Assembly (NCBI GenBank): GCA_042408215.1
Contig: JAYFMW010000020.1
Span: 96,001 to 160,000 of the forward strand
DNA length: 64,000 bases
Origin: Microcoleus sp.
GTDB taxonomy: Bacteria; Cyanobacteriota; Cyanobacteriia; Cyanobacteriales; Microcoleaceae
Direction of reading: 5' to 3'
Shown: positions 22,653 to 51,511 of the stretch, in pieces
How positions within the stretch are numbered: position 1 is the first letter of the stretch
Layout of the letters: each line of letters begins with the position of its first letter
Position numbers and translations under genes: made by a program
Notes under the pieces: model-generated
Database searches by the model: none
What the model was told of the DNA's origin: nothing
The model's input: the letters and a program-made list of their open reading frames with translations, nothing else

Positions 22653-25600
22653 TTACAAGAAAGAGCTACTATTAAGAGCAGTTTGATTCACATTATAAAC
22701 CACTCCCAAGTAGTCATTCCCCGATTTAATCGCCGTTGAAGCTACAGCCGTCGCACCATCTAAGATGATATTAACTGACTCAAAAGTTAGTTGACTGAAA
22801 GTGGCACCAATCAACTTGATTTGATCGTCGGAAGTGAAGTCAGTAATCACATCAGCTCGATCGGGATTATTGGCGATATATTCTAAGACAAAGTTATCAT
22901 TCCCTGCGCCACCTGTGAGCAGATCGAAACCTCGATCGCCATTCAGGATATCATTGCCCGCGCCACCTAATAAGACATCATCTTGCTTACCACCGCGCAG
23001 GGTATCATTACCATCGCCACCAGTGAGACTATCATTGTCATTATTTCCAGTTAAAAAGTCGTTATCAATACCGCCATCGATCGAGTCGGAACCTTTGCCG
23101 CCAAATAGTTGATCGTCGCCACCTAAGCCTACCAAATAATCTTCTCCTTGATTACCAAAATAGGTATTTGGTAATTCTGAACCTGTTAAGGAGTCGTTAC
23201 CAGAAAGAGCAAATATGGTTAAACCTAATGCTTCTGGTGGGATGCTGGTATCTATGCTATCTGTTAGTAAGTAAACATCACCTAATAGGGTATTTTCTGG
23301 TAAACCCGATGGAATGTTACTTGATACCGATGGTTTTGGTATAGCGATCGCTATTTTTACATCTGTTGGCGTTGGCGTTGGCGTTGGCGTTGGCGTTGGC
23401 GTTGGCGTTGGTGTCGGTATTACCAATGGAATTGGTATCGGCTTCGGTGTTACAGATGTTGGTGTTACAGGCGTTGGTGTTACAGGTGTTGGTGTTACAG
23501 GTGTTGGTGTTACAGGTGTTGGTGTTACAGGTGTTGGTGTTACAGGTGTTGGTGTTACAGGTGTTGGTGTCAGTATGACTGGGGTATTAGCAGCAGTCAA
23601 AATTTGTCGATCTAACGCAGTACCTGTGTTTTCTGCAACTAGAGAATCAAGGGTTTTTTGACCGGCACCAAAGGCCTTAAAGTCTTGAGTTGTTTCACCT
23701 AAAGCAACTTTTTGAATTACTGCTACTTGTTTTTGCAGTTGTGTAGGATCGGTATTAGTAGCGATCGCCTCTACAATACGTTGATTAGATGCTGCTATTA
23801 CCTGCGCTATGGCGGGTGCGGCCACTAATACCTCTTGGGTGTTAAAATTAGGATCGATCGCCTTCACCCGATCTGCTACCTTTTCCACTAAGGCCGCTAC
23901 TTGTTCAGATTTGGTTAAATCTAATGATACTCCGGTTTGGATGACATCTGCGATCGCACTCACTATTTGCTTAACAGCATCACCCACAGAAATATTACTT
24001 GCGCCTTCAATTAATCCCGCAGTTTGAGCGATCAAGTTTTGGGTTTCAGTCATCGCGCTTAATACCGATTTACCACCGGGTTGTTCGCCTTTAGTCGCCG
24101 CGATCGGATCGACATAATTAATCGCGATATCGCTAGGAATACCAAAAGTGCTAGTGACTTTGCTATTAGCTTCATCAACAGTTAAACCGCGATCGACCAT
24201 TTCCGCCAAGATAGTAGTCAGTAAAGTAATTACTTGTCCATCTGGTGTCGCTTTTAGCGGAGTTTCTAGGGGTAAACCCGTACCGATATCGACCCCGCCA
24301 AAAGCGACTAAATTACCTTCACTGGGATCGAGTTTGCCATTACTATTAGTGTCAAAAGTGCTAAAATCAACATCAAAAGCAAATGCGCCTTTACTGTCAG
24401 TTATCCCTTTGGGTTCGTTCGGATCGATGATGCCATTTTTGTTAGCATCAAAGAAGACATTAGCACCGGCAATATAGTCGTCAATCACGAAACCCGTGCA
24501 GTTCCAGCCTACAAGATTCAATAACTCACTGACACTCTTGCCATTATTATCAGTACCTTTCACTTCTACCCATTGGGGTAAAGATAAATTACTTCCTGGT
24601 ACTTGACTGAGAGTGCGAGTAATGGGGTCAAATTTTAGGGAAGCATTAGGTCCGTCAAATATTTCTGGAATAGTAGTTACGGAAGCATTGTCTGTTTTCC
24701 GCTTGTATTGACCCCCATTTCCGCCTTGCGTCCAGATATAATCTTGTCCATAGTCAACAGAATTATTGTCTAGGGCGGTGACTGTATAGGTAATAGTATC
24801 GCCTGGATTTGGATCGATAAATGTGTCAGGCGCAAACTTAAAAGCGGTATTGCTAGAAAATCCACTAGCAGCACTTTGAGTCCATACTGGGTTATAGACG
24901 ATCGGCGCTTGATTGTTAAGAGTTGGTGTAGGCGTTGGAGTTGGAGTTGTTGGTGTTGGCTCTACAGGCGTTGGCGTTGGCGTTACGGGTGTTGGTGTTG
25001 GCGTTACGGGTGTTGGTGTTGGAGTTACGGGTGTTGGCGTTGGCGTTACGGGTGTTGGCGTTGGCGTTGGTGTTGGAGTTACGGGCGTTGGCGTGGGTGC
25101 AGGAATATTAACCACAATATTCCCTAAACTGCCAGCGGCCACAAAATTCCCTAATGTATTCTTAACTTCAGTACCTTGTAAATCTACTGTGTAAGTCCCA
25201 TTATCCGTATTATCCCAAGTTCCACCAGGCGGCGTAAATGAATAAGTTACAAGACGCGGTGTACCATTACTATTATCAACACTGACTTTTGTGACGGGAA
25301 TATTGCCATTAATTTTGATATCGCGATCGTCAATGGTAGTAACATCAATTCCCGTATTATCAGTATAATTTACGAACAATTGTTGAACTGTGTCGCCTGC
25401 TGTAGTAATATTACCAACTTGCGTTAAACCAGCAGTTGGTAACGTAACATCATAAGTCCGTGTGAGTTGAGTCGCCGCGGTATTATTATTACCCGCAGTA
25501 TCAGTTGCTTTAGCCGCCGGAATATCAACTGTGACATTACCATTCGCAGTGGGAGTCACATCAAAAGTGTAGGTTTTCGCATCAACTGTGACCAAGTTAC

Positions 25601-28040
25601 CGACAGCAGCATTGGCTACGGTGATATCAGTATTATCAAAGCCGATGACATTTTCATTAAAGGTAGCAGTGACGCTAAATAAACCGTTAACTGTTGCTGC
25701 TGAAGTGGATGTTAAAGTAACAGTTGGTGCAACGGTATCAATAACTATGGCTTTGCTACCGCCGAGGGAGTTAGCTGAGGCTAAGGCGGGAAGAGTTAAA
25801 ACAGCATCCACAGCCAAATTATCTTGAATTGTGCCGCCGTTAAGGGTGAGGGCAGTTGTGGTGAGGTATTCTAAGTCAGCAGATGTGTCTCCTGCTTGCA
25901 CTACATAGTTGAAAGTGAGTGCAGTACCGCCACTACCACTGGTATATGTGGCAAATTTGTCAGTTGTGCCTGTTTCTAATTGCAGTTGGGGTGTGCCACC
26001 TGTGGTATCTACGGTGACAGCAGCATCAAAGGTGACGGTGATGGCGATGGTGGAACCTACACCGTAGCTGCCGTCAGGGGTGGTGGCGGTGACAGCAGTA
26101 ACTTTGGGGATAGTACCATTGAGGAGGATGGAGGCTGTACTGTCGCTCATATTTGCCACAGCTAAGTCGGGTTTCCCGTCGCCGTTGATGTCCCCGATGC
26201 TGACGGATTGGGGCTGAGTGCCAGTTGTGAAGTCAACTTTGGGGGCGAAAGTGGGGGTAGCGGCGTTGGTGGCGGTGGTGTTCAGCAGGATGGAAGCGCT
26301 GTTGCTGCCTGCGTTCACCACAGCTAAGTCAGGTTTCCCGTCGCCGTTGATGTCCCCGATGCTGACGAATTTGGGGCTACTGCCAGTAGTGAAGTCTATA
26401 TTGGTGGCGAAAGTGGGGGTGGTGGCTCCGGTGGCGGTGGTGTTCAGCAGAATGGAAGCGCTATTTCTGATGGGGCTCGCCACAGCTAAGTCAGGTTTGC
26501 CGTCGCCGTTGATGTCCCCAATGCTGACGGAGTTGGGGATATCGCCAGTATTGAAGTCAACTTTGGGGGCGAAAGTGGGGGTGGCGGCTTGGTGGCGGTG
26601 GTGTTGAGCAGGATGGAGGCGCTGTTGCTGACGAGTTCGCCACAGCTAAGTCAGGTTTGCCGTCGCCGTTGATGTCCCCGATGCTGACGGATTGGGGGCT
26701 AGTGCCAGTTGTGAAGTCAACTTTGGTGGCGAAAGTGGGGGTGGTGGCTCCGGTGGCGGTGGTGTTCAGCAGAATGGAGGCGCTGTTGCTGCCGATGTTC
26801 GCCACAGCTAAGTCAGGTTTGCCGTCGCCGTTGATGTCCCCAATGCTGACGGAGTTGGGGATATCGCCAGTAGTGAAGTCAACTTTGGTGGCGAAAGTGG
26901 GGGTGGTGGCATTGGTGGCGGTGGTGTTCAGCAGGATGGAAGCGCTGATGCTGACGTTCGCCACAGCTAAGTCAGGTTTGCCGTCGCCGTTGATGTCCCC
27001 GATGCTGACGGAGTTGGGGCTAATGCCAGTAGGGAAGTCAACTTTGGTGGCGAAAGTGGGGGTGGTGGCGTTGGATGCGGTGGTGTTCAGCAGGATGGAG
27101 GCGGTGTCGCTGCTGCTGTTTGCCACAGCTAAGTCAGGTTTTCCGTCGCCGTTGAAGTCGCCGATACTGACGAAGTTGGGGGTAAGGCCAGTAGGGAAGT
27201 CAACCTTGGTGGCGAAAGTGGGAGTGGTGGCTCCGGTGGCTGTGGTGTTCAGCAGGATGGAGGCGCTGGTGCTGCCCTGGTTCGCCACTGCTAAGTCCGG
27301 TTTTCCGTCGCCGTTGATGTCGCCGATGCTGACGGAGTAGGGGTTACTGCCAGTTGCGAAGTCAACTTTGGGGGCGAAAGTGGGGGTGGTGGCGACCGTG
27401 GCGGTAGTGTTGAGCAGGATGGAGGCGGTGCTGCCGTAGTTCGCCACAGCTAAGTCCGGTTTGCCGTCGCCGTTGATGTCCCCGATGCTGACGGATTGGG
27501 GGTAGTGCCAGTTGTGAAGTCAACTTTAGGGGCGAAGCCTAGTACGCCACTGTAGGTTTTGAGGGCCTTGGCGTTAAATGGTACTGTTGCTTCTATCGGA
27601 CCTGTTTTTACTTCTAAGTTCCAGTCTCCTCCTAATTCAGCGCTGCCGGTGAGGTTAGCTGAGGCGGCGATGTCTGCACCAGTGATTTCACTTAGTCGCT
27701 TGAGGAAGTTTTGGCCGGTTTCTCCTGCGGCTACTTCGCATCCATATAATAGGATGTCGGCGTTTTGGGTGAGGGCTTTTCCCCACTGTTTTAGCTTGGT
27801 GTTAAAATTTTCTAGGTTATTACTATTGAGTGCTTCTGTGCCGAGTGTTACACTGCCTGGGCTGCCGTGAGAAAGGATATGAATTGCTTTAATATCTTTT
27901 TGATTAGCCAAGGCGTTAGTAATTTGTTCGATCGCGCTCAAATTTTCATTTAAAATGAAAATTTGAGCGCGATCGGCGTTATAAATTAGACTTTGATAGT
28001 CCTGTACAGAGGAGTCTACGAAAATTATTTGCTTTTTCAC
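22653..28040 (-). CDS. Large secreted DUF4347 / FG-GAP(VCBS) x9 / Ig-like / Pro-Thr linker / RTX protein (~1796 aa), broken by three 1-nt deletions
   Basis: Three ORF-track pieces join once single missing bases are restored at about 27500 (G5), 26633 and 26588, judged against sister repeats. HILSHGSPG and DILLYGC (DUF4347), GDINGDGKPD x9, GGxGxD nonapeptides. Confidence 0.9.
23365..23570 (-). repeat. Coding (VTPTP)n and (TP)n repeats; a second tract lies at ~24920-25100
   Basis: 15-bp GGTGTTACAGGTGTT and 6-bp GTTGGC arrays. Confidence 0.9.
26120..27540 (-). repeat. Nine ~160-bp FG-GAP/VCBS coding repeats
   Basis: GD(I/F)NGDGKPDLAVA recurs every ~53-54 codons. Confidence 0.9.
27929..27975. 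repeat. Perfect 23+1+23 bp palindrome centred on codon 30 (TTA)
   Basis: CGATCGCGCTCAAATTTTCATTT-A-AAATGAAAATTTGAGCGCGATCG. Confidence 0.95.
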
Positions 28041-32677: not shown

Positions 32678-32707
32678 TGCTTGTTTCTGTAATTTTTGCT
32701 TGGGGTC

Positions 32708-32764
32708 TTGACATTATTATACTAAACGGTTTAGTTTAAATATATCAGAACTAAACCGTTTAGT
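32708..32764. promoter_or_regulatory. Divergent promoter with two palindromic TetR-type operator candidates
   Basis: ACTAAACGGTTTAGT (32721-32735) and ACTAAACCGTTTAGT (32750-32764). TTGACA at 32708. Confidence 0.8.
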
Positions 32765-32793
32765 TTTTAGTCCTCAAATCAGAGGTGCTCGTT

Positions 32794-34215
32794 ATGGTAC
32801 ATCCCTCGACAGCAGAAGGCTTAGCCTCCAATCCATCCTTAGTTAAGCAACTCCTAGTTGTGGCAGCAGTAGCAACCCTGGCGGCTGGGGGAACTACAGG
32901 CTACGCGGTGTGGCGATCGCACATTCCCGATCCCAATGCAGCAACGATAGCAGCAGCGGCCACAGCATCGCAATTAACCACAGTGACAGCCTTGGGGAGA
33001 CTGGAACCCAAGGGAGAAGTCATCAAAGTATCGGCCTCTGGTTCCGCCGAAGGAAGCCGGATCGATCGGCTTTTGGTGAAAGAAGGAGATCGGGTAAACA
33101 CAGGCCAAGCGATCGCAATTCTCGACAGTCGCGATCGCCTCTCGGCGGCCTTCGACCAAGCTCAAGAACAAGTGCGCGTCGCCCAGGCGAATCTAGCCAA
33201 AGTTAAAGCTGGAGCCAAAAATGGCGAAATTCAAGCCCAGAAAGCCACCATTGGCCGTTTAGAAGCCGATCGCAGTCACGAAATCGCAGCGCAACAGGCG
33301 ATCGTTGCTCGCTTATCTGTCGATCGCAGTACCGAAATTGCAGCGCAACAAGCGACAATTGCTCGCATCAGGGCCGAACAGCTTGGGGAAATTCAAACCC
33401 AACAAGCCACAATTGCTCGTCTACAAGCTGAACTTCGCAACGCTAGCAGTGAGTATCAGCGGTACTCGCAACTGTATCAAGAAGGAGCAATCTCTGCTTC
33501 CACCAGCGACAGCAAAAAACTAGCCGCAGAAACAGCCCAACAACAACTCAACGAAGGAAAGGCCAAACTCAATCAAATTCAGCAATCTCGCCAACAACAG
33601 ATTAATGAAGCCCAAGCCAAACTGAATCAAATTCAGCAATCTCGACACCAGCAGATTAATGAAGCCCAAGCTAAACTCAGCCAAATTCAGGAATCTCGAT
33701 ACCAGCAAATCGACGAAGCCAAAGCAAATCTCGATCGCATTTCCGAAGTGCGCCCCGTTGATGTGGAAGCCGCCAGCGCCGAAGTCGGTTCCGCCGCTTC
33801 CGCCGCCAAACAAGCCAAAGCCAATCTGGATTTAGCATACATCCGCGCACCGAGAGACGCGCAAGTTCTGAAAATTCACACCTATCCGGGGGAACGGGTG
33901 GGGAATGATGGCATTATTGAACTGGGACAAACTCGCGAGATGTTGGCTGTTGCTGAAATTTACCAAAGTGATGTGGACAAGGTACGCCTTGGACAGCAGG
34001 CCAAAATTACTAGCGATTCTTTCCAGGGGGAATTGCTGGGAAATGTCGAATACATTGGCTTACAAGTGCTGCGGCAAAACATTGTTAATACTGATCCTTC
34101 TGCTAATATTGACGCTCGAGTTGTGGAGGTGAAGGTGCGTTTGGATGCTGTTTCTAGTCGGAAAGTCGCGGGTTTGACTAATTTGCAAGTGAAGGTGGCG
34201 ATCGGCGGAAGTTAA
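32794..34215 (+). CDS. devB: ABC exporter membrane fusion protein, DevB family
   Basis: VTALGRLEP, LLVKEGD, AEIYQSD, DARVVEVKVRL and LTNLQV, with long coiled-coil repeats. Confidence 0.92.
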   Translation: MVHPSTAEGLASNPSLVKQLLVVAAVATLAAGGTTGYAVWRSHIPDPNAATIAAAATASQLTTVTALGRLEPKGEVIKVSASGSAEGSRIDRLLVKEGDRVNTGQAIAILDSRDRLSAAFDQAQEQVRVAQANLAKVKAGAKNGEIQAQKATIGRLEADRSHEIAAQQAIVARLSVDRSTEIAAQQATIARIRAEQLGEIQTQQATIARLQAELRNASSEYQRYSQLYQEGAISASTSDSKKLAAETAQQQLNEGKAKLNQIQQSRQQQINEAQAKLNQIQQSRHQQINEAQAKLSQIQESRYQQIDEAKANLDRISEVRPVDVEAASAEVGSAASAAKQAKANLDLAYIRAPRDAQVLKIHTYPGERVGNDGIIELGQTREMLAVAEIYQSDVDKVRLGQQAKITSDSFQGELLGNVEYIGLQVLRQNIVNTDPSANIDARVVEVKVRLDAVSSRKVAGLTNLQVKVAIGGS

Positions 34216-34371
34216 GGATTAAGATTTTTTTAACCACAGAGAGCGCAGAGGACGCAGAGGAAGAGAATGGAGAGATGTATCATTCTGATTTAATTATTAA
34301 AGATTAAGAATTGTTCCCACATCAGGTTGCTGTCTTTAATCCAAAATCTCAAATCTAAAATCTAAAATAGT

Positions 34372-35556
34372 ATGCTCGGACTTATCAAACCATTACAACA
34401 GTTAAGGCGCAGAACTCCTCTCGGATGGCTGCAACTTAGTCACGACAAAGGGCGAATGGCCGTAGCTATAGCGGGAATTGCTTTTGCTGATGTTTTGATG
34501 TTCATGCAGTTGGGCTTCCAAAATGCGCTTTACACCAGCAATACGCGGCTGCACCAAACTTTGCAAGCTGACTTAGTTTTAATCAGCCCCCAAGGCCGGA
34601 ATTTGCTAAATTTGTCTTCTTTCCCTAGGCGCAGATTGTATCAGGCTATGAATGTACCGGGTGTGAAATCTGCCGAGCCGCTTTATGTCAAACTTGCTAA
34701 CTGGAAAGTTCCCGAAACTCGCCGCGAAACGTCCATTATGGTGGTGGGTTTTAATCCCGATCGCCCGGCGTTTGATCTCCCAGAAGTTAACCAAAATTTG
34801 AGCGCTATTAAATTGCCCGATACTGTGTTATTTGACCGAGCTGCAAGGGGAGATTATCAAAGAGCGATCGCCCAAATCAATCAGGGAAAATCTGTTAAAA
34901 CTGAGCTCGATCGACGCACCATTACGATCGGCGGCTTGTTTACAATTGGAGCATCTTTTGCCGCCGATGGAGCTTTAATTACCAGCGATCAAAATTACCT
35001 GCGCTTGTTTCCCAAACAAAATGCCGGGAGTGTTAATGCCGGATTAATTCAATTGCAAGCTGGTGCCGATCCTGTACAAGTCCAACAAGTTTTAAAAGCA
35101 TATTTGCCGCCGGATGTCAAGGTACTTACCAAACAAGAATTTATCGAGTTCGAGAAAAATTATTGGGCTACTAATACTGCGGTCGGCTTTGTGTTTAACT
35201 TAGGCGTAGCGATGGGTTTCGTTGTAGGAGTAATTATCGTTTACCAAGTCCTCTCAACCGATGTCAGCGACCACATGGCAGAATATGCTACTTTTAAAGC
35301 AATGGGCTACCGCAATATTTACTTGCTAGGCATCGTTTTTGAAGAAGCTTTAATTTTGTCAATTCTCGGTTTTCTGCCTGGAGTGGGAGTGTCTGTAGCA
35401 CTTTACACCTTAACTCGCAGAGCTACAAATCTGCCCATATACATGACACTAATGCGAGCAATTGTTGTGTTAACTTTGACTCTAATTATGTGCGGTATTT
35501 CGGGAACTATTGCTACTCGCAAACTTCAAGCAGCCGACCCCGCAGACATTTTTTAA
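34372..35556 (+). CDS. devC: ABC exporter permease, DevC family
   Basis: TPLGWLQL, GIAFADVLMFMQLGF, EYATFKAMGY and ADPADIF. Confidence 0.95.
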   Translation: MLGLIKPLQQLRRRTPLGWLQLSHDKGRMAVAIAGIAFADVLMFMQLGFQNALYTSNTRLHQTLQADLVLISPQGRNLLNLSSFPRRRLYQAMNVPGVKSAEPLYVKLANWKVPETRRETSIMVVGFNPDRPAFDLPEVNQNLSAIKLPDTVLFDRAARGDYQRAIAQINQGKSVKTELDRRTITIGGLFTIGASFAADGALITSDQNYLRLFPKQNAGSVNAGLIQLQAGADPVQVQQVLKAYLPPDVKVLTKQEFIEFEKNYWATNTAVGFVFNLGVAMGFVVGVIIVYQVLSTDVSDHMAEYATFKAMGYRNIYLLGIVFEEALILSILGFLPGVGVSVALYTLTRRATNLPIYMTLMRAIVVLTLTLIMCGISGTIATRKLQAADPADIF

Positions 35557-35929: not shown

Positions 35930-38900
35930 TTACAAGAAAGAGCCACTATTAAGAGCTGTTTGATTCACATTATAAACCACTCCCAAGTAGTTATTCCCAG
36001 ACTTAATCGCCGTTGATGCTACAGCAGTTGCACCATCTAAGATGACATTAACTGACTCAAAGGTTAGTTGACTGAAAGTGACACCAATCAACTTGATTTT
36101 ATCGTCGGAAGTGAAGTCAGCGATCGCATCAGCTTGAGATGGGTTAGTAGCCGTATATTGTAACACAAAGGTATCCTTTCCTGCACCACCGGTGAGCACA
36201 TCGAAACCTCGATCGCCCCACAATTCATCATCGCCATTCCCACCTATCAAAACATCATTTTCCTTACCCCCGCGTAAGAGATCGTTACCCTCGCCACCAG
36301 TGACAGTATCGTTGTCATTATTTCCACTCAAGAAGTCATTCCCATTACCACCAGACAATTGATCCGATTTTTTCCCCCCAAACAAGTTGTCGTTACCATC
36401 ACCGCCATCAATGGTATCAGCGCCTTCGTTACCATAGATGATGTCATTCTCGGCACTTCCCGTCAATTTATCATTACCTGATAAGCCGAATATAGGTTTA
36501 CCAAATGCTGATTGTGGGATACTGGTGTCATCATTATCACTCAGTAGATATTGGTTATCTACCACTTGATTTTGTGGGAAATTAGTTGGTTCACCGCGAT
36601 CGATATTACCGACTGATGGTGTGTTAATTGCGATCGCCGTGGGTGTTACCGATGGTGTCGGTGTTACCAATGGAATTGGTGTCGGTTGCGGTGTTACCGA
36701 TGGAGTTGGTGTTACCGATGGTGTTGGTGTTACCGATGGTGTTGGTGTTACCGATGGTGTTGGTGTTACCGGTGGTGTTGGTGTAGTATTTGTATTGACT
36801 ACCCCCACATCCGTCACATCAAAGCCACTGTATTTAGCATCGGTAGAAGTCGCACTCCCTGTGATAATTTGATAAGCAATATCACCATCAAATACGGTAT
36901 CATCTACTCCTGTTACTGTGACTGTTTGTGCTACATTCCAGTCGATCGGTGTGAAAGTAACAGTTGATTTATCTACAATACCTTCGGTAGTTTTGCTGCT
37001 AGTTAATGGAATGGTGACATCGGCTGTTGGCTGAGTGTTTAGCTTGACAGTAAATGTGGCTGTTCCACCCGCTTCTGTGGTGGTTAATCCGGTGGTTGGG
37101 CTGACTGTGATTCCAGCAGTTTCGTTGTCGGTGTTGGTGACAGCTACATCGGCTGGTTTGAGATTTTTGTAGTTGGTATCTGTCGTAGTTGTGTCAGCCG
37201 TCGTCAGAATTTGATAGGCTTGATTTCCGTCAGCAATTGAGTCATCTACTCCTGTTACTGTGACTGTTTGTGCTACATTCCAGTCGGTCGGTGTGAAAGT
37301 AACAGTTGATTTATCTACAGTACCTTCAGCGGTGTTACTGCTAGTTAATGGAATGGTGACATCGGCTGTGGGTTGCGTGTTTAACTTGACAGTAAATGTA
37401 GCTGTTCCGCCTGCTTCAGTTGTGGTTAATCCGGTGGTTGGGCTGACTGTGATTCCAGCAGTTTCGTTGTCGGTGTTGGTGACAGCTACATCGGCTGGTT
37501 TGAGATTTTTGTAGTTGGTATCTGTGGTAGTTGTATCAGCCGTCGTGAGAATTTGATAGGCTTGATTTCCGTCAGCAATTGAGTCATCTACTCCTGTTAC
37601 TGTGACTGTTTGGGGAGTATTCCAGTTAGCATTCGTGAAGGTGACACTGTTTTTATCTACAATACCTTCGGTAGTTTTGCTGCTAGTTAATGGAATGGTG
37701 ACATCGGCTGTTGGTTGCGTGTTTAGCTTGACAGTAAATGTGGCTGTTCCGCCTGCTTCTGTGGTGGTTAATCCGGTGGTTGGGCTGACTGTGATTCCAG
37801 CAGTTTCGTTGTCGGTGTTGGTGACAGCTACATCGGCTGGTTTGAGATTTTTGTAGTTGGTATCTGTGGTAGTTGTGTCAGCCGTCGTCAGAATTTGATA
37901 GGCTTGATTTCCGTCAGCAATTGAGTCATCTACTCCTGTTACTGTGACTGTTTGTGCTACATTCCAGTTATTAGGTGTGAAAGTAACAGTTGATTTATCT
38001 ACAGTTCCTTCGGTAGTTTTGCTGCTAGTTAATGGAATGGTGACATCGGCTGTTGGTTGCGTGTTTAGCTTGACAGTAAATGTAGCTGTTCCACCCGCTT
38101 CAGTTGTGGTTAATCCGGTGGTTGGGCTGACTGTGATTCCAGCAGTTTCGTTGTCGGTGTTGGTGACAGCTACATCGGCTGGTTTGAGATTTTTGTAGTT
38201 GGTATCTGTGGTAGTTGTGTCAGCCGTCGTCAGAATTTGATAGGCTTGATTTCCGTCAGCAATTGAGTCATCTACTCCTGTTACTGTGACTGTTTGTGCT
38301 ACATTCCAGTCGGTCGGTGTGAAAGTAACAGTTGATTTATCTACAGTTCCTTCGGTAGTTTTGCTGCTAGTTAATGGAATGGTGACATCGGCTGTTGGCT
38401 GAGTGTTTAACTTGACAGTAAATGTAGCTGTTCCACCCGCTTCAGTTGTGGTTAATCCGGTGGTTGGGCTGACTGTGATTCCAGCAGTTTCGTTGTCGGT
38501 GTTGGTGACAGCTACATCGGCTGGTTTGAGATTTTTGTAGTTGGTATCTGTGGTAGTTGTGTCAGCCGTCGTCAGAATTTGATAGGCTTGATTTCCGTCA
38601 GCAATTGAGTCATCTACTCCTGTTACTGTGACTGTTTGTGCTACATTCCAGTTATTAGGTGTGAAAGTAACAGTTGATTTATCTACAGTTCCTTCGGTAG
38701 TTTTGCTGCTAGTTAATGGAATGGTGACATCGGCTGTTGGTTGCGTGTTTAGCTTGACAGTAAATGTAGCTGTTCCACCCGCTTCAGTTGTGGTTAATCC
38801 GGTGGTTGGGCTGACTGTGATTCCAGCAGTTTCGTTGTCGGTGTTGGTGACAGCTACATCGGCTGGTTTGAGATTTTTGTAGTTGGTATCTGTGGTAGTT

Positions 38901-41900
38901 GTGTCAGCCGTCGTCAGAATTTGATAGGCTTGATTTCCGTCAGCAATTGAGTCATCTACTCCTGTTACTGTGACTGTTTGTGCTACATTCCAGTTAGTCG
39001 GTGTGAAAGTAACAGTTGATTTATCTACAGTTCCTTCGGTAGTTTTGCTGCTAGTTAATGGAATGGTGACATCGGCTGTTGGTTGCGTGTTTAGCTTGAC
39101 AGTAAATGTAGCTGTTCCACCCGCTTCAGTTGTGGTTAATCCGGTGGTTGGGCTGACTGTGATTCCAGCAGTTTCGTTGTCGGTGTTGGTGACAGCTACA
39201 TCGGCTGGTTTGAGATTTTTGTAGTTGGTATCTGTGGTAGTTGTGTCAGCCGTCGTCAGAATTTGATAGGCTTGATTTCCGTCAGCAATTGAGTCATCTA
39301 CTCCTGTTACTGTGACTGTTTGTGCTACATTCCAGTTAGCATTGGTGAAGGTGACAGTTGATTTATCTACAATACCTTCGGTAGTTTTGCTGCTAGTTAA
39401 TGGAATGGTGACATCGGCTGTTGGTTGCGTGTTTAGCTTGACAGTAAATGTGGCTGTTCCACCCGCTTCAGTTGTGGTTAATCCGGTGGTTGGGCTGACT
39501 GTGATTCCAGCAGTTTCGTTGTCGGTGTTGGTGACAGCTACATCGGCTGGTTTGAGATTTTTGTAGTTGGTATCTGTGGTAGTTGTGTCAGCCGTCGTCA
39601 GAATTTGATAGGCTTGATTTCCGTCAGCAATTGAGTCATCTACTCCTGTTACTGTGACTGTTTGTGCTACATTCCAGTTATTAGGTGTGAAAGTAACAGT
39701 TGATTTATCTACAGTTCCTTCGGTAGTTTTGCTGCTAGTTAATGGAATGGTGACATCGGCTGTTGGTTGCGTGTTTAGCTTGACAGTAAATGTAGCTGTT
39801 CCACCCGCTTCAGTTGTGGTTAATCCGGTGGTTGGGCTGACTGTGATTCCAGCAGTTTCGTTGTCGGTGTTGGTGACAGCTACATCGGCTGGTTTGAGAT
39901 TTTTGTAGTTGGTATCTGTGGTAGTTGTGTCAGCCGTCGTCAGAATTTGATAGGCTTGATTTCCGTCAGCAATTGAGTCATCTACTCCTGTTACTGTGAC
40001 TGTTTGTGCTACATTCCAGTCGGTCGGTGTGAAAGTAACAGTTGATTTATCTACAGTTCCTTCGCGTAGTTTTGCTGCTAGTTAATGGAATGGTGACATC
40101 GGCTGTTGGTTGCGTGTTTAACTTGACAGTAAATGTAGCTGTTCCGCCCGCTTCAGTTGTGGTTAATCCGGTGGTTGGGCTGACTGTGATTCCAGCAGTT
40201 TCGTTGTCGGTGTTGGTGACAGCTACATCGGCTGGTTTGAGATTTTTGTAGTTGGTATCTGTGGTAGTTGTGTCAGCCGTCGTCAGAATTTGATAGGCTT
40301 GATTTCCGTCAGCAATTGAGTCATCTACTCCTGTTACTGTGACTGTTTGTGCTACATTCCAGTTAGTCGGTGTGAAAGTAACAGTTGATTTATCTACAGT
40401 TCCTTCGGTAGTTTTGCTGCTAGTTAATGGAATGGTGACATCGGCTGTTGGTTGCGTGTTTAGCTTGACAGTAAATGTAGCTGTTCCACCCGCTTCAGTT
40501 GTGGTTAATCCGGTGGTTGGGCTGACTGTGATTCCAGCAGTTTCGTTGTCGGTGTTGGTGACAGCTACATCGGCTGGTTTGAGATTTTTGTAGTTGGTAT
40601 CTGTGGTAGTTGTGTCAGCCGTCGTCAGAATTTGATAGGCTTGATTTCCGTCAGCAATTGAGTCATCTACTCCTGTTACTGTGACTGTTTGTGCTACATT
40701 CCAGTCGGTCGGTGTGAAAGTAACAGTTGATTTATCTACAATACCTTCGGTAGTTTTGCTGCTAGTTAATGGAATGGTGACATCGGCTGTTGGTTGCGTG
40801 TTTAACTTGACAGTAAATGTAGCTGTTCCACCCGCTTCAGTTGTGGTTAATCCGGTGGTTGGGCTGACTGTGATTCCAGCAGTTTCGTTGTCGGTGTTGG
40901 TGACAGCTACATCGGCTGGTTTGAGATTTTTGTAGTTGGTATCTGTGGTAGTTGTGTCAGCCGTCGTCAGAATTTGATAGGCTTGATTTCCGTCAGCAAT
41001 TGAGTCATCTACTCCTGTTACTGTGACTGTTTGTGCTACATTCCAGTTATTAGGTGTGAAAGTAACAGTTGATTTATCTACAATACCTTCGGTAGTTTTG
41101 CTGCTAGTTAATGGAATGGTGACATCGGCTGTTGGTTGCGTGTTTAGCTTGACAGTAAATGTAGCTGTTCCACCCGCTTCAGTTGTGGTTAATCCGGTGG
41201 TTGGGCTGACTGTGATTCCAGCAGTTTCGTTGTCGGTGTTGGTGACAGCTACATCGGCTGGTTTGAGATTTTTGTAGTTGGTATCTGTGGTAGTTGTGTC
41301 AGCCGTCGTCAGAATTTGATAGGCTTGATTTCCGTCAGCAATTGAGTCATCTACTCCTGTTACTGTGACTGTTTGTGCTACATTCCAGTTAGCATTGGTG
41401 AAGGTGACAGTTGATTTATCTACAATACCTTCGGTAGTTTTGCTGCTAGTTAATGGAATGGTGACATCGGCTGTTGGTTGCGTGTTTAGCTTGACAGTAA
41501 ATGTGGCTGTTCCACCCGCTTCAGTTGTGGTTAATCCGGTGGTTGGGCTGACTGTGATTCCAGCAGTTTCGTTGTCGCTAATTATTACACTTTGGTTTAG
41601 GGTATTTCCTAATGCGATTCCTGTGGACTGGTTGCTAATTATTAAAGTAGCGGTTTCCGTACCTTCGGCAAGTAAATCATCATTAACTGTAATGGTTACT
41701 TGTCCTGTATTACTACCATTTGGGATGGTTATTTGAGTGGTAATAGCACCAGTAAAATCAGCCGCATTCGCAGTACCAGTTAATGCTAAATCAATGGTTT
41801 GATTGCCGACGACATTACCTTCAGCAGTGGCGGTAAAGGTAATAGCTGTTGTCCCGGCTTCACTAGCAGTAGTTGTGCTGGCACTGAGGTTAACTTTCGG

Positions 41901-44663
41901 TGCGGGAACGGTGATATTAAAGGTAGCTGTGTTGGAAAGGTCAACACCAGTATTGGCTATACCACCGTCATCTTGCAGTTGCACGCTAACGGTGGCAGTA
42001 CCGGGTTTACCACTGGGAGTGTAAGTCAGCGTGCCATTGGTTGCTACACTGGGTTGAGCGGTAAATAAGGTATTGTCGGTGTTAGTAACGGTGTAGTTGC
42101 TAACTGTTTGAGTTGATTCATTCGCTGGGCCGAAGATAACAGTATTTGCCCAGCCGCTAACTGTTTGAATTGTGTTTGTCCATGATGTTAGGGTTTGATT
42201 GCTTAAGTTACTGAAACTGGGTTTGTCGTTGACTGGATTGACAGTGATGGTGAGGGTTTGGGTGGCGGAGGTATCAACACCTGGAGTGCCGCCACTGTCT
42301 TTTACTGTCACATCAAAGGTGGAGGTGCCGTTAGCATCAGCCGCAGGAGTGTAGGTGAGTTGACCGTTAGCATCTACGGCCGGCCCTGTCGCAAATAAGC
42401 TGGGGTTGCCGATATTGGTAACAGTGTATGTCGCTGTTTGCGTGGCTTCATCCGTACCCCCTCCTCGATTAAAGGTCGCCCAACCCGCTACTGTTTGTAC
42501 CCCAGCGTCTTCGTTGACTGTTGGGTTGGTGGCGGTGAAACTGGGAATGTCGTTGACGGGGGTAACGGTGATGGCGGCGGTGTCGGTGGCGACGCTGAAA
42601 GCCGTATTACCGCCGTTGGTAGTGGTGTCTGCGGTGCTGCCGTTAGTGCCTGTCATTTGATCCCAGGCGCGGAAGGTGATGCCGTTGGTGATAGCACCGT
42701 TGTAGTTGGCGTTGGGTTGGAAGTAAATGCGGGTACTGCCATTAGCCGCAAGTAAGCGGGCACTGGTAGTGGATACTGCGCCCAATGCGTTCCAGTTAGT
42801 ACCGCCATCCGTGGTATAAAACCAACTGCCATTAGTTGTGTTGGCGGCGGTGATGGCGAGGCCTGCTACTGGGCCGATGTCGGGATCTGTGATGTTATTT
42901 TGACCTGTACCGATGGCCGTAATGGCAGAGATCAGGGTGCCGACAGCGCCGATGGGAGTACCGGAGTCTTCGAGGATATTGCTGAGAGTGACAACGGTAT
43001 CGGCGAGGACGGGAGCGGTGTTGATGCTGCCGTAGACATCTTCATTGTCCTGAGTTCGTCCTTGACCGTTGGTAGGGGTGTTGCCAGTAGCGTTAGCGCT
43101 GTTGTTGCCGATGAAAGTTGCTCCTAATGATGTGACCAAGGGTACGGTGGTTGGCATTTGAAGGTTGTTGCCATTGGTGTTAGTAGTGGAGGCCATAACA
43201 AATATTGCGCCACCCTTGCCTTGGCCAGGATTGAGACCCGTGCCACCTGTGGTTGAGTTATTAGTAAGGGCGGTATTATTCAGAATTAAAGAGCCACTGC
43301 GGATGAATATGGCACCCCCTAAGCCAGCACCACCGCCACCCAGTTGGCTAGCCCCACCGCCAGCCCCACCGCCAAAGCCAGCAGCACCAGCCCCGAAAGT
43401 GCCTGATCCTCCACCGCCACCATAACCGCCCTTACCTGCGGAAGCGTTTCTTGCGCCACCGCCGCCACCACCAAAACCCCCAGCGCCGGCACTACCACCG
43501 CCGTACTTACCACCACCACCACCACCAAAACCCCCAGCGCCGGCACTACCACCGCCACCACCACCTGTCCCACTAGCACCAGCGGCTCCGCCAGCGCCAC
43601 CGAATGCCCCGCCAGAGCCACCGACAGAGCCAATACCGTTGCCGCCGAAGCCACCGCCGCCTCCGTTGTTGACGGAGACACCGGCACCGAACATCCCGCC
43701 ACCGCCTCCGCCAGAGTAGGTCCCGACACCATTCCCACCGATCGCCTGATTGTTGGAGAAGGTCACATTATTCAGGCTCACCGTACCGTTATAGATAAAG
43801 AGTCCGCCCCCCATACCAGCACCACCGGCAGCCCGATTGCCCCCATTACCACCTTGGGCGCGGCCTCCAGCTATAGTCATGTTGGAGAAACTAACGGTTC
43901 CCGACTTCACAAAGAAGGGGCGAACATCACCCGCGTTATTTGTAGCGCTATTATCCGCATCCCCGCTCAGGCTAAAACCGCCACCGATAAAGCTGATATT
44001 GCTGTCAATTAGAACCTGGGGAGCGGCTGTAAATCGGACATTAGTAGTAAGGGTAATAGTGTCATCACCGGCTGCGGCATTCGCATCTAAAATGGCTTTG
44101 CTCAATGTGCCGGCTACAGTGCCGGTGCCATCATCGGTGGCAACCGTTACATCGTAATTCGCCAGTGTATAGTCATAATCTGCCATCGCCTCCTGATTAA
44201 AGGGCACGGCGGCTTCTATTTGGCCAGTTGCTATTTCTAAATCCCAGTCGCCACCCTTAGCTTGATTCCCGGTTTTATTAGTAGAGGAGGCAATATCAGC
44301 ACCCGTTAATTGATGCAGATTTTGGATAAATTGTGGTCCCGTTTGTCCCGCGCCGACATCGCAACCATAGAGGAGGATATCCCCATTTTTAGTTAAGGCT
44401 TTACCCCACTGTTGAATTTTATTACTAAATTGCGCTAAATCCTGATTATTAAGGGTATCTGAACCTAGTTTTAAACTACCTTCGCTCCCGTGAGAAAGGA
44501 TATGAATTGCTTCAATATCTTTTTCTCCTGCCAAGGCTTTTGTAATTTGATCGATGGCGCTAAAATTTTCATTTTAAATGAAAATTTTAGCGCCATCGGC
44601 GTTTTTGATAAGGCTTTGATAATCTTGTACTGAGGAGTCTACGAAAATAATTTGCTTGTTCAT
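35930..44663 (-). CDS. Giant secreted DUF4347 / Gly-rich / cadherin-like / 14x114-aa repeat / RTX adhesin-like protein (~2910 aa), with TAA at codon 30 and a +1 insertion at ~40065
   Basis: ATG 44663 (MNKQIIFVDSSVQDY) is in frame with ORF 40047-44534. An extra C in one repeat (TTCGCGTAG vs TTCGGTAG) joins it to 35930-36817. Confidence 0.9.
36790..41578 (-). repeat. About 14 tandem 342-bp coding repeats (Calx-beta/Ig-like, Thr-rich)
   Basis: Antisense ORFs recur with an exact 342-bp period (343 across the insertion). The last copy is divergent. Confidence 0.95.
44552..44598. repeat. Perfect 23+1+23 bp palindrome centred on codon 30 (TAA)
   Basis: CGATGGCGCTAAAATTTTCATTT-T-AAATGAAAATTTTAGCGCCATCG. 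Confidence 0.95.
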
Positions 44664-44918
44664 GTTGGGTACGTTCATAATTGCTGAAATTCTTGATATC
44701 TATCGTTTACATTCAAGTCCGGCTCTTGTTGAAACCCCCGCCTCAAAGCTTAATATCAAATCCGGTGGTATTGGAATTGATATTGCCCACAGTCAGGAAA
44801 CGGCAATGCCGTGTCCCTACAATTAATCGGGCGATGGTTACATCCGAAGGAGGACTAATGATTATTTGGGGGTAGGGAAACGGCATTGCCGTGTCCGATA
44901 TTGCTCAGGTTTTACGGT

Positions 44919-45740
44919 TTATTTAGCTTTCGCTACAATCGCACTAGCGCGGCTATTTGTTGCCTCTGTCCAAAAAGATAAGCCATCAAATCGCTCAAAC
45001 AAATCGGGAGGTAAAATCGTTGTTCTCGGTTTAAACTCTACTTGAGAACGCACTTGATGTAACCCTTTTGTTTGCAGTCTATTATCAAATTCTGGCTCTT
45101 CATATTGAACATTCTCGAAATCATGCTCGAAAGGCTCTTCGCCCAGAAATTGATAAATTAATGACATAGTTTTAGCCGGCCCTTTGGTTAATAGATCGTA
45201 ATCTACCAGTAGAAGAGATGCACTCTGTTCGCTGTAGAATGCTTCTTTCAGGGCGTTATAGGCATAACCCACTAAACGCGAACCTTGACTTAATGCTTCG
45301 GTACGGCTATAAACTGTAGCCCGTTCTGCTGGATTATTAAATAACCTGGAAACATCAAAGGCGTTGCGCCGAATTAGTAGCTCGATGCTATCCATAATCC
45401 AAGCGATATTTCTGACACAACAGATAATTTTAGCTTCAGGAAATAGTTCCCGAATTAATGGCAGTTTGCTGCACCACAGGCGATTGGTGTCGAAGATTAT
45501 TTCTTTGTCAACTTGCGGGTGGTAATAGGCAGAAAAAATGCTCAGAATCAGCGCTCTTTTTTGTTCCTGTGAAATAAATACGGAAAACTCATTGTCTTCG
45601 CTCATGGCTTCTAACATTCGCTCTACTAAACCCCCCACTGGGCTAGTCATGGCCGCGTGAAACCGGGGATTTTGGCGCAATAAAGCGGCCAGTAAAGTAG
45701 AGCCTGAGCGTGGTAGTCCTGAGATGAAATGGGCTTTCAC
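44919..45740 (-). CDS. PAPS-dependent sulfotransferase family protein
   Basis: FISGLPRSGSTLL 5'-PSB loop and KIICCVRN...S 3'-PB motif. Confidence 0.92.
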   Translation of the reverse strand: MKAHFISGLPRSGSTLLAALLRQNPRFHAAMTSPVGGLVERMLEAMSEDNEFSVFISQEQKRALILSIFSAYYHPQVDKEIIFDTNRLWCSKLPLIRELFPEAKIICCVRNIAWIMDSIELLIRRNAFDVSRLFNNPAERATVYSRTEALSQGSRLVGYAYNALKEAFYSEQSASLLLVDYDLLTKGPAKTMSLIYQFLGEEPFEHDFENVQYEEPEFDNRLQTKGLHQVRSQVEFKPRTTILPPDLFERFDGLSFWTEATNSRASAIVAKAK

Positions 45741-45989
45741 TGACCTTGCGTTGCAATGGGGTTGTATAAATCATATGCGAGGTAAATATATCATAGTAAG
45801 GGCATATTTTTTGAGATTATATGTTTATTTAATATTTCTTAACACAACCTCAAGGTTTACGATATCTTTATAATCTAGACATGGTGAGTAGGGACACGGC
45901 ACTGCCGTGTCCCTACTTGGGATTTCTAGATTGTGTAACAGTTAAAAAAGCCAAAGTTCGCAAAAATTAAGGATGAAAAGATCATTTCG

Positions 45990-46275
45990 CGATTGAAATC
46001 GGGGCAACCACGGCTGGGCTGTTTCATTCTTTGTAGGGGCAATCCCTCGTGAAGAGCCCCGACCGCTGAAACAGCAGATTGTGGATGGGGAGGGACGGGG
46101 TACGACAAGAGTCAAAATCCTGATTTCCCTGAGAATGAAACAGCCCTGGGGCAACCACGGGGGATTGCCCCTACACAAACTTTCGTCCCTCTCTGCGGAG
46201 ACTAAGAAATAAGGGGGTATTTAAGCCGGATTTGGGATCGGTCATTTTGAGGACTTTAGTCCTCACTACAAACCT
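45990..46275. repeat. REP-like cluster (GTAGGGGCAATCCCCCGTGGTTGCCCC and GTAGTGAGGACTAAAGTCCTC types)
   Basis: Inverted copies at about 46033 and 46147-46174, and a further type at 46248-46269. Confidence 0.7.
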
Positions 46276-46287
46276 CACTTTTAACTT

Positions 46288-47004
46288 ATGAAATCCACTA
46301 ATATCAACCCAACAACTAACAAATTACCGATTTCTGAGCCGGTAATTTCTCTGCACAAACTCGACCACTACTTCGGTCAAGGTCAACTGCGAAAACAGGT
46401 ACTTTCTGACATAAACATAGAAATTAATGCAGGTGAGATTGTGCTGATGACCGGGCCTTCTGGTTCAGGAAAAACAACGCTTTTGACTTTGATTGGCGGA
46501 CTGCGATCGGGTCAATCTGGAAGTCTCAAAATTCTTGGTCAAGAGATGTGTCATGCGAGTTCAGATAAATTGGTAAAGACGCGGCGCAACATTGGCTATA
46601 TTTTTCAGGCGCACAACTTGCACCGCAGTTTAACAGCACTACAAAACGTGCAAATGGGTTTGGAAGTTCACGGCAATTTGTCGCGTTCCGAAATGGGCGA
46701 TCGCTCTGCAAAAATGCTAGAATTAGTAGGACTGGAAGAGCGGATTAACTATTATCCAGATGACTTGTCAGGGGGACAGAAACAAAGAGTTGCGATCGCC
46801 CGCGCTTTGGTTAGTCATCCGCAAATTGTTTTAGCTGACGAACCAACAGCGGCCCTGGACAGCAAATCCGGTCGCGAAGTGGTGAATTTGATGCAGAAAC
46901 TTGCCAAAGAGCAAGGTTGTACTATTCTGTTAGTAACCCACGACAATCGAATTTTGGATATTGCCGATCGCATTATTCATCTGGAAGATGGCAAATTAGC
47001 ATAA
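46288..47004 (+). CDS. devA: ABC exporter ATP-binding subunit, DevA family
   Basis: GPSGSGKTTLLTLIGGLRS, IFQAHNL, LSGGQKQRVAIARAL and VTHDNRILD. Confidence 0.95.
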   Translation: MKSTNINPTTNKLPISEPVISLHKLDHYFGQGQLRKQVLSDINIEINAGEIVLMTGPSGSGKTTLLTLIGGLRSGQSGSLKILGQEMCHASSDKLVKTRRNIGYIFQAHNLHRSLTALQNVQMGLEVHGNLSRSEMGDRSAKMLELVGLEERINYYPDDLSGGQKQRVAIARALVSHPQIVLADEPTAALDSKSGREVVNLMQKLAKEQGCTILLVTHDNRILDIADRIIHLEDGKLA

Positions 47005-47154: not shown

Positions 47155-48192
47155 CTAATGGGTAACAACCAATCCTTGGCGGTAAATCCCCAAATTCTTC
47201 TGATACATTGCTTCGAGTTTGGGCATCGAGGATTCCACAGAACCGCCAAAACGCCGAAAAGAAGGCCAGATGTCAGCGAGTTTTTTCACTGCTGACGACC
47301 ATCGACCCGCTTCTATATCTCCTAAGGCACCTTGTTCTCGGATTAATTCTATAGCTACAAGGTCTTGATTTTGCGGGCTGAAATCGTTGACACCAAATTT
47401 TTGGGCGAACCTGTCCCAGGTGGTGCTGAGAAACTGATATCGCCCCGCTGCGTCGGAACAGAGTTTTTTGCCGTAGCGGCGGCCGCACTTCATTTCCCTG
47501 GGATGGTCACTGAAACTGGCAAATTTGGTGCCGGTGTACTGAGTGCGGTAGCCATCGGGTGTAGCGGTGCCTTCGGCGGCGGCGATGGTGTCGAGAAAGG
47601 CTTTGACTCGATCGCGCTCGATGTTATGCTCTCCTTTGTCTGGTGACTTCAGCGTTGGAGTTTCCGGCTGTCGATCGCCCTCAATGTTATGCTCTCCTTT
47701 GTCTGGTGCATCGATGGCTGCAACGGACGGCCGGCGTTTCGGGGCGGGCGAGCTTTCTGCCGAGACTGATTGTCCCCACAGTCTGGGGGTGATTCGACTT
47801 AAGAAAAAACAAAAACAGATGCACAAACTCCAGGAGAGTTTAAAACCGAGGCGTTTGGGGCGTTTAGTGCTCACCACCGGCCACCCGTACATGGGGATTG
47901 CTGCGGGCAAAATTCCCGTTTGCTGACCGAAGGCGAACAGCGATTTCAGCGCTAGCAAAGTTTGCTTGCAGAGACTGGGTGCAAGTTTGTGAGCTCTCAT
48001 CTGCGCGGCGAAAGTCTCGACATCTGCCAGAGTAACTTGTGCTAACGGTTTTTCTACAAACAGCAGAAACTGGTTTGCCACCAGCCTGCTAAAGCCCTGG
48101 CTGCGGGGGGCTTGGCGCTTTACCCACAGACGAATTAGCTCGATGTCGTCCATAGGGTAAAGATGGTTTTCCAGATGTTCTTGTGCGTACAA
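47155..48192 (-). CDS. Fusion: integrase N-terminal SAM/core-binding-like domain + hydrophobic segment + lambda-lysozyme-like (GH104) domain
   Basis: C-terminal VKAFLDTIAAAEGT, SDAAGRYQFLSTTWD and FSPQNQD. N-terminal KPLAQVTLADV...LKSLFAFG. AGGAGG precedes the TTG start. Confidence 0.85.
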   Translation of the reverse strand: MYAQEHLENHLYPMDDIELIRLWVKRQAPRSQGFSRLVANQFLLFVEKPLAQVTLADVETFAAQMRAHKLAPSLCKQTLLALKSLFAFGQQTGILPAAIPMYGWPVVSTKRPKRLGFKLSWSLCICFCFFLSRITPRLWGQSVSAESSPAPKRRPSVAAIDAPDKGEHNIEGDRQPETPTLKSPDKGEHNIERDRVKAFLDTIAAAEGTATPDGYRTQYTGTKFASFSDHPREMKCGRRYGKKLCSDAAGRYQFLSTTWDRFAQKFGVNDFSPQNQDLVAIELIREQGALGDIEAGRWSSAVKKLADIWPSFRRFGGSVESSMPKLEAMYQKNLGIYRQGLVVTH

Positions 48193-51356: not shown

Positions 51357-51511
51357 CCGTTCCCAGATATATTCATAATATTTGAAGCATTTCTTTTGCC
51401 CTTAAAAATCAAGCATATTTCAGTTTGTGAAGTAGGGACACGGCACTGCCGTCTCCTCTTACGGACACGGCAGTGCCGTGTCCCTACAGATATCCTCTAC
51501 TCCGCCTTTCA

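Follow-up and report, generated by a model that had tools for sequence, protein, structure and literature searches.

We analysed a 64,000-nucleotide (nt) stretch of a Microcoleus sp. genome (GenBank assembly GCA_042408215.1, contig JAYFMW010000020.1, positions 96,001 to 160,000), hereafter the window (G000:C20:96001-160000), where G000 denotes the source genome of 7.36 Mb in 30 contigs. On its minus strand, the window carries two giant genes that encode a DUF4347 domain (PF14252), and inside each of these domains lies a perfect palindrome with a single unpaired base at its centre (Table 1). This unpaired base occupies the second position of codon 30, which is TTA (Leu) in gene 1 and TAA (stop) in gene 2. 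Our analyses suggested that the palindrome centre is a recurrent Leu/stop toggle, restricted to one subfamily of giant RTX proteins in Microcoleus and apparently reversible.

Table 1. Positions of the two giant genes, their palindromes, domains and repeats in the window, and of heptamer-repeat palindromes in the source genome
Feature	Position	Strand	Remarks
Gene 2: giant DUF4347 / immunoglobulin (Ig)-like tandem-repeat / RTX protein gene	35930..44663	-	about 2910 codons; by Pfam
Gene 2 DUF4347 domain, palindrome inside	44163..44651	-	G000:C20:140163-140651; 204.2 bits; one TAA inside
Gene 2 palindrome, 23+1+23, perfect	44552..44598		arms 44552-44574 / 44576-44598; centre 44575
Gene 2 tandem array	36900..41577	-	342-bp (114-aa) units; 13.7 copies; 96% alike
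Gene 2 top-scoring RTX nonapeptide stretch near C-terminus	36383..36490	-	five stretches in total; residues 1198-1233 of the downstream open reading frame (ORF) protein
Gene 1: DUF4347 / FG-GAP repeat / Big_12 / RTX protein gene	22653..28040	-	by Pfam
Gene 1 DUF4347 domain, palindrome inside	27540..28028	-	G000:C20:123540-124028; 212.9 bits; no stop
Gene 1 palindrome, 23+1+23, perfect	27929..27975		arms 27929-27951 / 27953-27975; centre 27952
Gene 1 FG-GAP-type 162-bp tandem repeats	26155..27536	-	hold both frameshifts
Heptamer-repeat palindromes of the source genome	C1:62471-62531, C30:289369-289419, C17:635139-635186, C6:738232-738274		

From its ATG at 44663, gene 2 reads ...AKIFI-stop(TAA)-NENFSAIDQIT (I29-TAA(30)-N31); its palindrome centre is T on the plus strand and A on the coding strand, which puts codon 30 (44574-44576) in the OFF state. 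Gene 1 starts at GTG 28040 and reads ...AQIFI-L(TTA)-NENLSAIEQIT (I29-L30-N31), with A on the plus strand and T on the coding strand at its centre, the ON state at codon 30. The 23-nt arms are 100% complementary in both palindromes and stand 1 nt apart, and the two positions at which the arms of gene 1 differ from those of gene 2 are each compensated in the opposite arm. Folded as single-stranded DNA, the palindromes form a 22-bp stem with a 3-nt loop, at -25.1 kcal/mol (z -8.9) for gene 2 and -26.5 kcal/mol (z -9.3) for gene 1; folded as RNA, they form a 22-bp stem at -32.5 to -34.2 kcal/mol, with z again about -9. The initial annotation of this DNA had described both perfect palindromes, with the middle base of codon 30 at their centre, as well as the Leu and stop codons, and all of this was confirmed by a check of the arms and translations; its caveat that the change is also a T4A3/T3A4 boundary shift holds, as the same base is concerned. 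Across the source genome, seven loci carry a perfect palindrome with a 1-nt spacer and arms of at least 22 nt, and five of them are DUF4347 paralogues, the others being one heptamer-repeat palindrome and one intergenic site (C7:69200). The DUF4347 palindromes are far beyond chance.

Pfam matches in gene 2 comprise PF14252 (6.7e-51) and HemolysinCabind (3e-26), and those in gene 1 comprise PF14252 (3.3e-63), FG-GAP (6.4e-52) and HemolysinCabind (2.1e-16). At the protein N-terminus, PF14252 scores 212.8 bits in gene 1 and 172.7 bits in gene 2 against a gathering cut-off of 24.6, and GGxGxD motifs were found in orthologues. The products of both genes are probably giant RTX-type extracellular proteins secreted by a type I system, and the combination of DUF4347 with Ig-like or FG-GAP repeats and RTX motifs suggests that the switch would act on a surface or secreted product. 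A search of the PDB with the sequence of the DUF4347 domain gave no matches, and a search of the ESM Atlas with the same domain returned DUF4347 clusters only (scores 0.81-0.85). Both reading frames are interrupted beyond codon 30. In gene 2, a 1-nt insertion near 40060 shifts the frame within a repeat unit that reads ACGCGAAGG, where sister 342-bp units read ACCGAAGG; the length of about 2900 residues that had been given for its product therefore holds only for a reading that passes over a stop and a frameshift (29 + 1508 + 1383 aa). The frame of gene 1 is broken twice, near 27450-27519 and 26557-26645, by two 1-nt deletions within repeats. A change of copy number in the gene 2 array, one unit of which holds the frameshift, would be a second source of variation.

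The TAA codon recurs throughout the genus, taken here as Microcoleus in the broad GTDB sense, which takes in Microcoleus, Kamptonema, Tychonema and Oscillatoria/Phormidium-type names. In the source genome, 17 matches to PF14252 were found, four of them with one TAA inside, and six paralogues belong to the subfamily of the window genes (MNKQIIFVDSSVQDYQSLI...); five of the six have a perfect palindrome (four TAA, one TTA), and the sixth combines a broken palindrome with TTA. A search of all 79 genomes of the genus with the first 120 residues of gene 1 (E <= 1e-37) yielded 118 subfamily matches, among which 23 contain a single in-frame stop, TAA in every case. For alignment of the N-termini, 147 loci, mostly from the 79 genomes, were reduced to 143 passing (tblastn query start at or before 12, at least 200 nt) and then to 141 non-redundant sequences; matches that were partial or contained N, L057, L061 and L063 among them, were left out. 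Twenty-three of these 141 carry TAA, always at the codon homologous to codon 30, and apart from a single TAG at codon 78 the first 120 codons of the set contain no further stop. The initial annotation had asked whether TAA at this codon recurs independently among paralogues and orthologues above the background of nonsense codons; by these counts, together with the changes forced on the tree described below, it does. One chromosome that is complete in a single contig (G051) has TAA, as do a 1.36-Mb contig from a metagenome-assembled genome (MAG) (L172) and assemblies with SPAdes-style (NODE_) as well as k141-style contig names. Genome contigs outside the first set added four TAA loci and one TTA locus with arms of at least 21, one of the TAA loci being that on the 1.36-Mb MAG contig just named. 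Among metagenome contigs with the palindrome core, which a pattern search by construction finds only when perfect, 9 of 13 have TAA and 4 of 13 TTA, or 5 of 8 TAA when counted by lineage. The 16 genomes of the same order that were searched outside the genus contain distant DUF4347 domains only (at most 51% identity), and no palindrome was present in the five that were inspected.

The occurrence of the stop depends closely on the quality of the palindrome. With all 23 arm pairs matched, 19 N-termini have TAA and 10 have TTA or another codon; the corresponding counts are 3 and 10 at 20-22 matched pairs, 1 and 34 at 15-19, and 0 and 64 below 15. The uninterrupted inner arm separates the states still more sharply, with 20 TAA against 10 TTA or other sense codons at 21 bp or longer, 3 against 3 at 10-20 bp, 0 against 7 at 5-9 bp, and 0 against 98 at 0-4 bp. 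Thus 23 of the 36 copies with an inner arm of at least 10 bp are TAA, compared with none of the 105 with shorter arms (Fisher test, 1.5e-17, relatedness ignored), and about two thirds of the switchable copies were OFF when sampled. The 'locked' TTA genes typically have their mismatches 4-7 bp from the centre. The distribution of arm matches is bimodal, with 29 copies at 23/23 and just 3 at 22/23.

A maximum-likelihood tree was built from the 77 N-termini with at least 15 of 23 arm matches, using 294 columns from which those of the palindrome were excluded. Parsimony places 20 TAA/TTA changes on this tree, at least 12 of which are forced by well-supported (starred) branches, and the centre state clusters no more than shuffled labels do (shuffled mean 20.2; 282-287 of 500 shuffles as low). 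Close relatives differ in the same way: a TTA gene on a Microcoleus anatoxicus PTRS2 contig (L048) and a TAA gene from an Oscillatoriales river MAG (L072), compared over 1891 bp, differ at the centre base and nowhere else, and the centre differs in two of the six distinct pairs that are at least 95% identical with both palindromes perfect. In a two-state (Mk2) test on the 36 tips with an inner arm of at least 10, a reversible model reached a log-likelihood of -23.5, its rates running to saturation, compared with -44.2 for an irreversible one, on a short alignment. Return from OFF to ON is thereby supported indirectly, by this fit and by the intact TAA genes, which are under purifying selection.

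Those OFF genes are largely in good order. Five of the six TAA genes on contigs that span the whole gene keep a single frame from the stop to the RTX-bearing end, namely those of G051 (2084 aa), G089 (1934), G061 (1542), G001 (1516) and G053 (1357). Ratios of nonsynonymous to synonymous divergence (dN/dS) over the first 600 codons, at dS 0.6-1.4, were 0.19-0.30 for TAA-TAA pairs within a close cluster, 0.24-0.33 for TTA-TTA pairs and 0.19-0.33 for mixed pairs. A gene of 4-6 kb freed from selection would soon gather more lesions. About two thirds of the switchable copies are OFF, yet the family is intact over a dS of about 1, and we therefore infer that OFF copies return to ON.

The arms themselves evolve in concert. 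There are nine perfect arm variants, five of which occur with both centres, and arm sequences vary even among the paralogues of one genome. In the 51-column alignment, changes occurred on both sides in 8 of 23 pairs, giving 69 double-changed cells against 38.2±3.6 in shuffled data (0 of 500 as high), and the arms pair to 90% in the true register compared with 31-48% in slid controls. Some of the coupled changes alter the protein: a silent left-arm GTT/GTC difference is matched by an Asn/Asp (AAC/GAC) difference on the right, CAA/AAA (Gln/Lys) is coupled to TTG/TTT (Leu/Phe), and CGC/GCC/GGC/ACC to GCG/GGC/GCC/GGT across the arms. Judged from these alignments, arm compensation overrides protein conservation, and the amino-acid changes are apparently its cost. 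One tight clade (L025, L026, L075, L081, L082, L083) contains two different perfect palindromes together with mixed intermediates. G.U in the mRNA sense is not favoured among the mismatches (45, versus 37 A.C, the remainder being transversion types), and perfect copies have zero wobble pairs. Copying of one arm onto the other seems to fit these patterns better than selection on an RNA helix.

We consider it likely that template switching during replication reversibly inverts the palindrome centre and thereby gives rise to heritable ON/OFF states of the giant RTX-type proteins. The palindrome, about 47 bp long, lies in codons 22-38, and its single unpaired base is the middle one of a conserved Leu codon. 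Apart from its central base, a perfect palindrome reads alike on both strands. Once it has copied one arm, the growing strand could therefore cross the replication fork, anneal to that arm in the other template, copy the centre from the wrong strand and then switch back, an intermolecular template switch known as 'spacer inversion'. The sole outcome at the centre would be an exchange of T and A, that is, of TTA (Leu, full-length product) and TAA (stop after 29 residues). The same process could copy one arm onto the other and so keep the palindrome perfect, and copies that gain mismatches near the centre would become locked ON. The element would then amount to a self-maintaining, recombinase-free, heritable and reversible ON/OFF toggle. 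The chemistry of the switch, reversal within a lineage, a rate high enough for mixed clonal populations and a benefit to the organism are suggested by these patterns rather than observed, and phase variation in the strict sense would likewise be a reading of them.

Several observations weigh against this interpretation or limit its reach. The strong association between stop and inner arm was computed as if copies were unrelated, the tree rests on 294 columns, and the Mk2 test ignores the rate heterogeneity that arises as palindromes break or form. Logan contigs stop at about 44516, beside the gene 2 palindrome, and resume at about 44637, and only two divergent contigs (10 and 18 differences) cross it. 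The sixth fully spanned TAA gene (L191, on G058:C224) has a second in-frame stop at gene nt 4717, before the RTX region, and may be an OFF copy that has begun decaying. All five perfect-palindrome paralogues of the source genome carry 1-3 frameshifts, and the paralogue with the imperfect palindrome is intact at 3612 aa; if these frameshifts are real, the five are decaying pseudogenes. Ten of 51 genomes have their subfamily copies OFF without exception, and the proteins are therefore dispensable at least sometimes. Lastly, arm homogenisation can be a purely mutational drive, which would require no selection according to passages of the yeast study discussed below (PMC8604942), and selection for switchability is hypothetical.

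The last four of these points also speak for a non-adaptive mutational hotspot. Under that explanation, template switching perfects a quasi-palindrome and flips its centre as a hazard, the TAA copies are redundant, decaying pseudogenes, and lineages that need the protein keep palindrome-breaking mutations; the broken palindromes of 48 of the 77 subfamily genes, 44 of them TTA or other and 4 TAA, agree with it. It sits poorly with the OFF genes elsewhere, five of six having no further lesion in 1357-2084 codons, and with dN/dS values that are equal in TAA and TTA genes at a dS of about 1. One-way loss with some two thirds of the switchable copies OFF would have erased the subfamily, and the irreversible model fits far worse. 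The frameshifts of the source genome may, moreover, be assembly errors. At 51512-58325 (minus strand) of the window, two overlapping ORFs of 1036 and 1261 aa share an 83-nt overlap, and orthologues have open frames of 2243-2252 aa, which suggests one gene split by a frameshift, through assembly indel errors or as a pseudogene; assembly indel errors are therefore an alternative for the frameshifts in the paralogues as well. On balance we regard the hotspot explanation as unlikely, though it is the rival to be taken most seriously. An artefact of sequencing or assembly, in which perfect palindromes confuse k-mer graphs or strand-specific base calling and the consensus centre is arbitrary, would also be confined to perfect or near-perfect palindromes, and the breaks of the Logan k=31 contigs around the site and the probable indel errors in the source genome are in keeping with it. 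By reasoning alone, canonical k-mers cannot orient the centre at k of 24 or less, but any k of 27 or more can, as it spans the centre and flank, and contig names suggest k141-style and SPAdes-style assemblies. TAA stands in the complete chromosome G051, on the 1.36-Mb contig L172 and in the source genome, where the 342-bp arrays were assembled through, and an artefact would not leave 0 of 105 TAA among short-inner-arm copies plus phylogeny-free 2:1 proportions across assemblies whose contig names indicate differing pipelines. We therefore hold an artefact to be very improbable.

Two further explanations seem to us extremely improbable. In the one, the palindrome is kept for a role in RNA or protein binding, as an mRNA hairpin, an RNase III site or an operator, with an incidental centre and TAA copies expressed via read-through or re-initiation. 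The stable 22-bp mRNA stem and covariation above that of shuffles could be so explained, and template switching is reported, in the portions of the source considered, to create and maintain RNA hairpins (PMC8794818). The lack of G.U preference among mismatches, mostly of transversion types, and the lack of wobble pairs in perfect copies argue otherwise, the varying arms among paralogues of one genome are an ill fit to a single DNA-binding protein, and none of the 50 tRNAs of the source genome has a stop anticodon that would make it a suppressor. Rescue by frameshifting or hopping was likewise rejected, since hand inspection of the -1 and +1 frames found that only the zero frame continues the DUF4347 domain past TAA. 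The other, which has scarcely any better or worse prospects, holds that a site-specific invertase, or short-patch gene conversion between paralogues with opposite centres, makes the flip. The source genome does have 26 matches to resolvases (PF00239) and 5 to tyrosine recombinases (PF00589), and in several genomes some paralogues have the same arms but opposite centres, as L048 and L052 do in G009; nevertheless, the 50 kb on either side of each of the six paralogues are free of these recombinase matches. We know of no synaptic crossover for which a 1-nt segment between abutting 23-bp repeats would give room. One enzyme would have to tolerate nine arm variants, and TAA occurs in genomes where the search found a single subfamily copy, such as G051, hence with no donor. 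The ORF at 47158-48192 of the window was considered as a linked recombinase and rejected, its match to Phage_int_SAM_4 (E 3.5e-4) being below the cut-off, with no catalytic domain and no NCBIfam match; it is single-copy and has a lysozyme-like tail.

The source genome holds 51 perfect palindromes (arm of at least 11 outside the codon) centred on TTA/TAA, TCA/TGA or CTA/TAG, among which only the DUF4347 paralogues lie in long frames. Two other sites were examined as analogous switches and set aside: the hairpin element at C12:46357 is intergenic and precedes the real start, and the perfect 22+1+22 palindrome at C7:69200-69244, unrelated to DUF4347, lies in no ORF longer than 94 aa. The former belongs to a family of intergenic hairpins (CCCGACTTCTT-N-AAGAAGTCGGG, arms 14-16) with dozens of copies in this genome, for example at C17:39930, C5:90350, C6:252760 and C12:46357; their single centre base is A or T, depending on the copy, and the family could offer a neutral standard against which to gauge flipping of the centre. 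Among the perfect palindromes of this genome, the longest, with arms of up to 30, are formed by heptamer repeats (ACTGTTA / AGTTAAC type) that meet head to head (Table 1).

Between the two giant genes, the window holds at 32051-35556 a TetR regulator, an HlyD-like membrane-fusion protein (HlyD_3, 32785-34212) and an FtsX-type permease (34372-35553), and upstream of gene 2 lies an ABC ATPase (ABC_tran 46288-47001; gene 46288-47004). The HlyD_3, FtsX and ABC_tran genes may form a MacB/DevBCA-like exporter. An imperfect 30+1+30 palindromic element (core GTAGGGACACGGCA / TGCCGTGTCCCTAC) stands upstream of both DUF4347 genes, at 28557-28617 and 45872-45932, and a related element at 51432-51487. Logan contigs reach a 10-40x higher depth at 44718-45019, at 45775-45925 and at 46077-46227, and 44817-44832 is connected with 45888 by contigs; multi-copy repeats therefore flank the sulfotransferase gene at 44919-45740.

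The genes concerned encode RTX-type extracellular proteins of 1400-3600 aa in benthic mat-forming river cyanobacteria, a genus that includes M. anatoxicus, and heritable ON/OFF states could matter for adhesion, for the formation of mats and for their detachment. It is a more tentative proposal, to which we give rather less than even credence, that this 'hairpin flip-flop' is an evolved contingency switch by which filament lineages randomly turn giant RTX adhesin-like proteins ON and OFF. If it were true, it would provide combinatorial surface variation, for example between mat attachment and detachment or in the escape from phages and grazers, and it would add a further general mechanism of bacterial phase variation that is enzyme-free and self-repairing. 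Such a toggle is easily missed, as it looks like a single-nucleotide polymorphism (SNP) or an annotated 'pseudogene', and neither read-pair inverton finders nor scans for simple sequence repeats (SSRs) can see it.

Among open-access papers and bioRxiv preprints, we found no published description of such a palindrome-centre switch. A 2026 review, in the parts of it considered, lists repeats, site-specific inversions, reversible insertions/deletions and methylation as mechanisms of phase variation (PMC13742949), and the words palindrome, hairpin and template are absent from its text. A sense/stop toggle at a palindrome centre may thus be new as a phase-variation mechanism; spacer inversion itself is already known. 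Passages of the work on yeast coding DNA describe spacers that flip reversibly and arms that become homogenised at perfect inverted repeats; the spacers concerned measure 2-5 bp, and some of the flips are repeated and reversed, as in the K/L exchange of SPO75 via a 2-bp spacer (Abraham & Hazkani-Covo 2021, PMC8604942). The Microcoleus element resembles what is described there in its perfect arms in both states, a change that is the exact reverse complement of the spacer, parallel recurrence on the tree, the favouring of inversion by longer arms and the homogenisation of arms (PMC8604942). The yeast cases, as those passages present them, have 9-16-bp arms and 2-5-bp spacers, lead to amino-acid replacements, occurred few times each and are treated as mutations (PMC8604942), whereas the Microcoleus palindromes have 23-25-bp arms, a 1-base spacer, sense and stop states, at least 12-20 flips in a multi-copy family of giant secreted proteins and about two thirds of switchable copies OFF.

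The nearest bacterial parallel in outcome is given by the 'premature stop' intragenic invertons, for which the preprint, in the parts considered, reports intragenic inversions that toggle between full-length product and premature stop, often in genes of surface-related function (Chanin et al., bioRxiv 10.1101/2023.03.11.532203). As set out there, these invert tens of bp (e.g. 57 bp) between separated repeats, are presumed to be invertase-mediated and were found by read pairs (10.1101/2023.03.11.532203). In Microcoleus, by contrast, 1 nt lies between abutting 23-bp arms with no linked invertase, and an inverton tool would see a SNP only. The thyA hotspot is an Escherichia coli example of template switching at a quasipalindrome. 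With such E. coli hotspots, as described in portions of the source (PMC7202029), the Microcoleus element would share a replication-linked template switch at hairpin-forming repeats and recurrent, specific substitutions. The E. coli hotspots proceed from an imperfect to a perfect palindrome and then stop, whereas the Microcoleus palindrome is already perfect and apparently toggles both ways. Finally, it is like the contingency loci based on SSRs in that a hypermutable 5' motif in a surface or secreted gene would give reversible ON/OFF states without a dedicated enzyme, with paralogues in mixed states; it differs from them in that the motif is a palindrome instead of a repeat tract, and the change a transversion instead of an indel with its frameshift.

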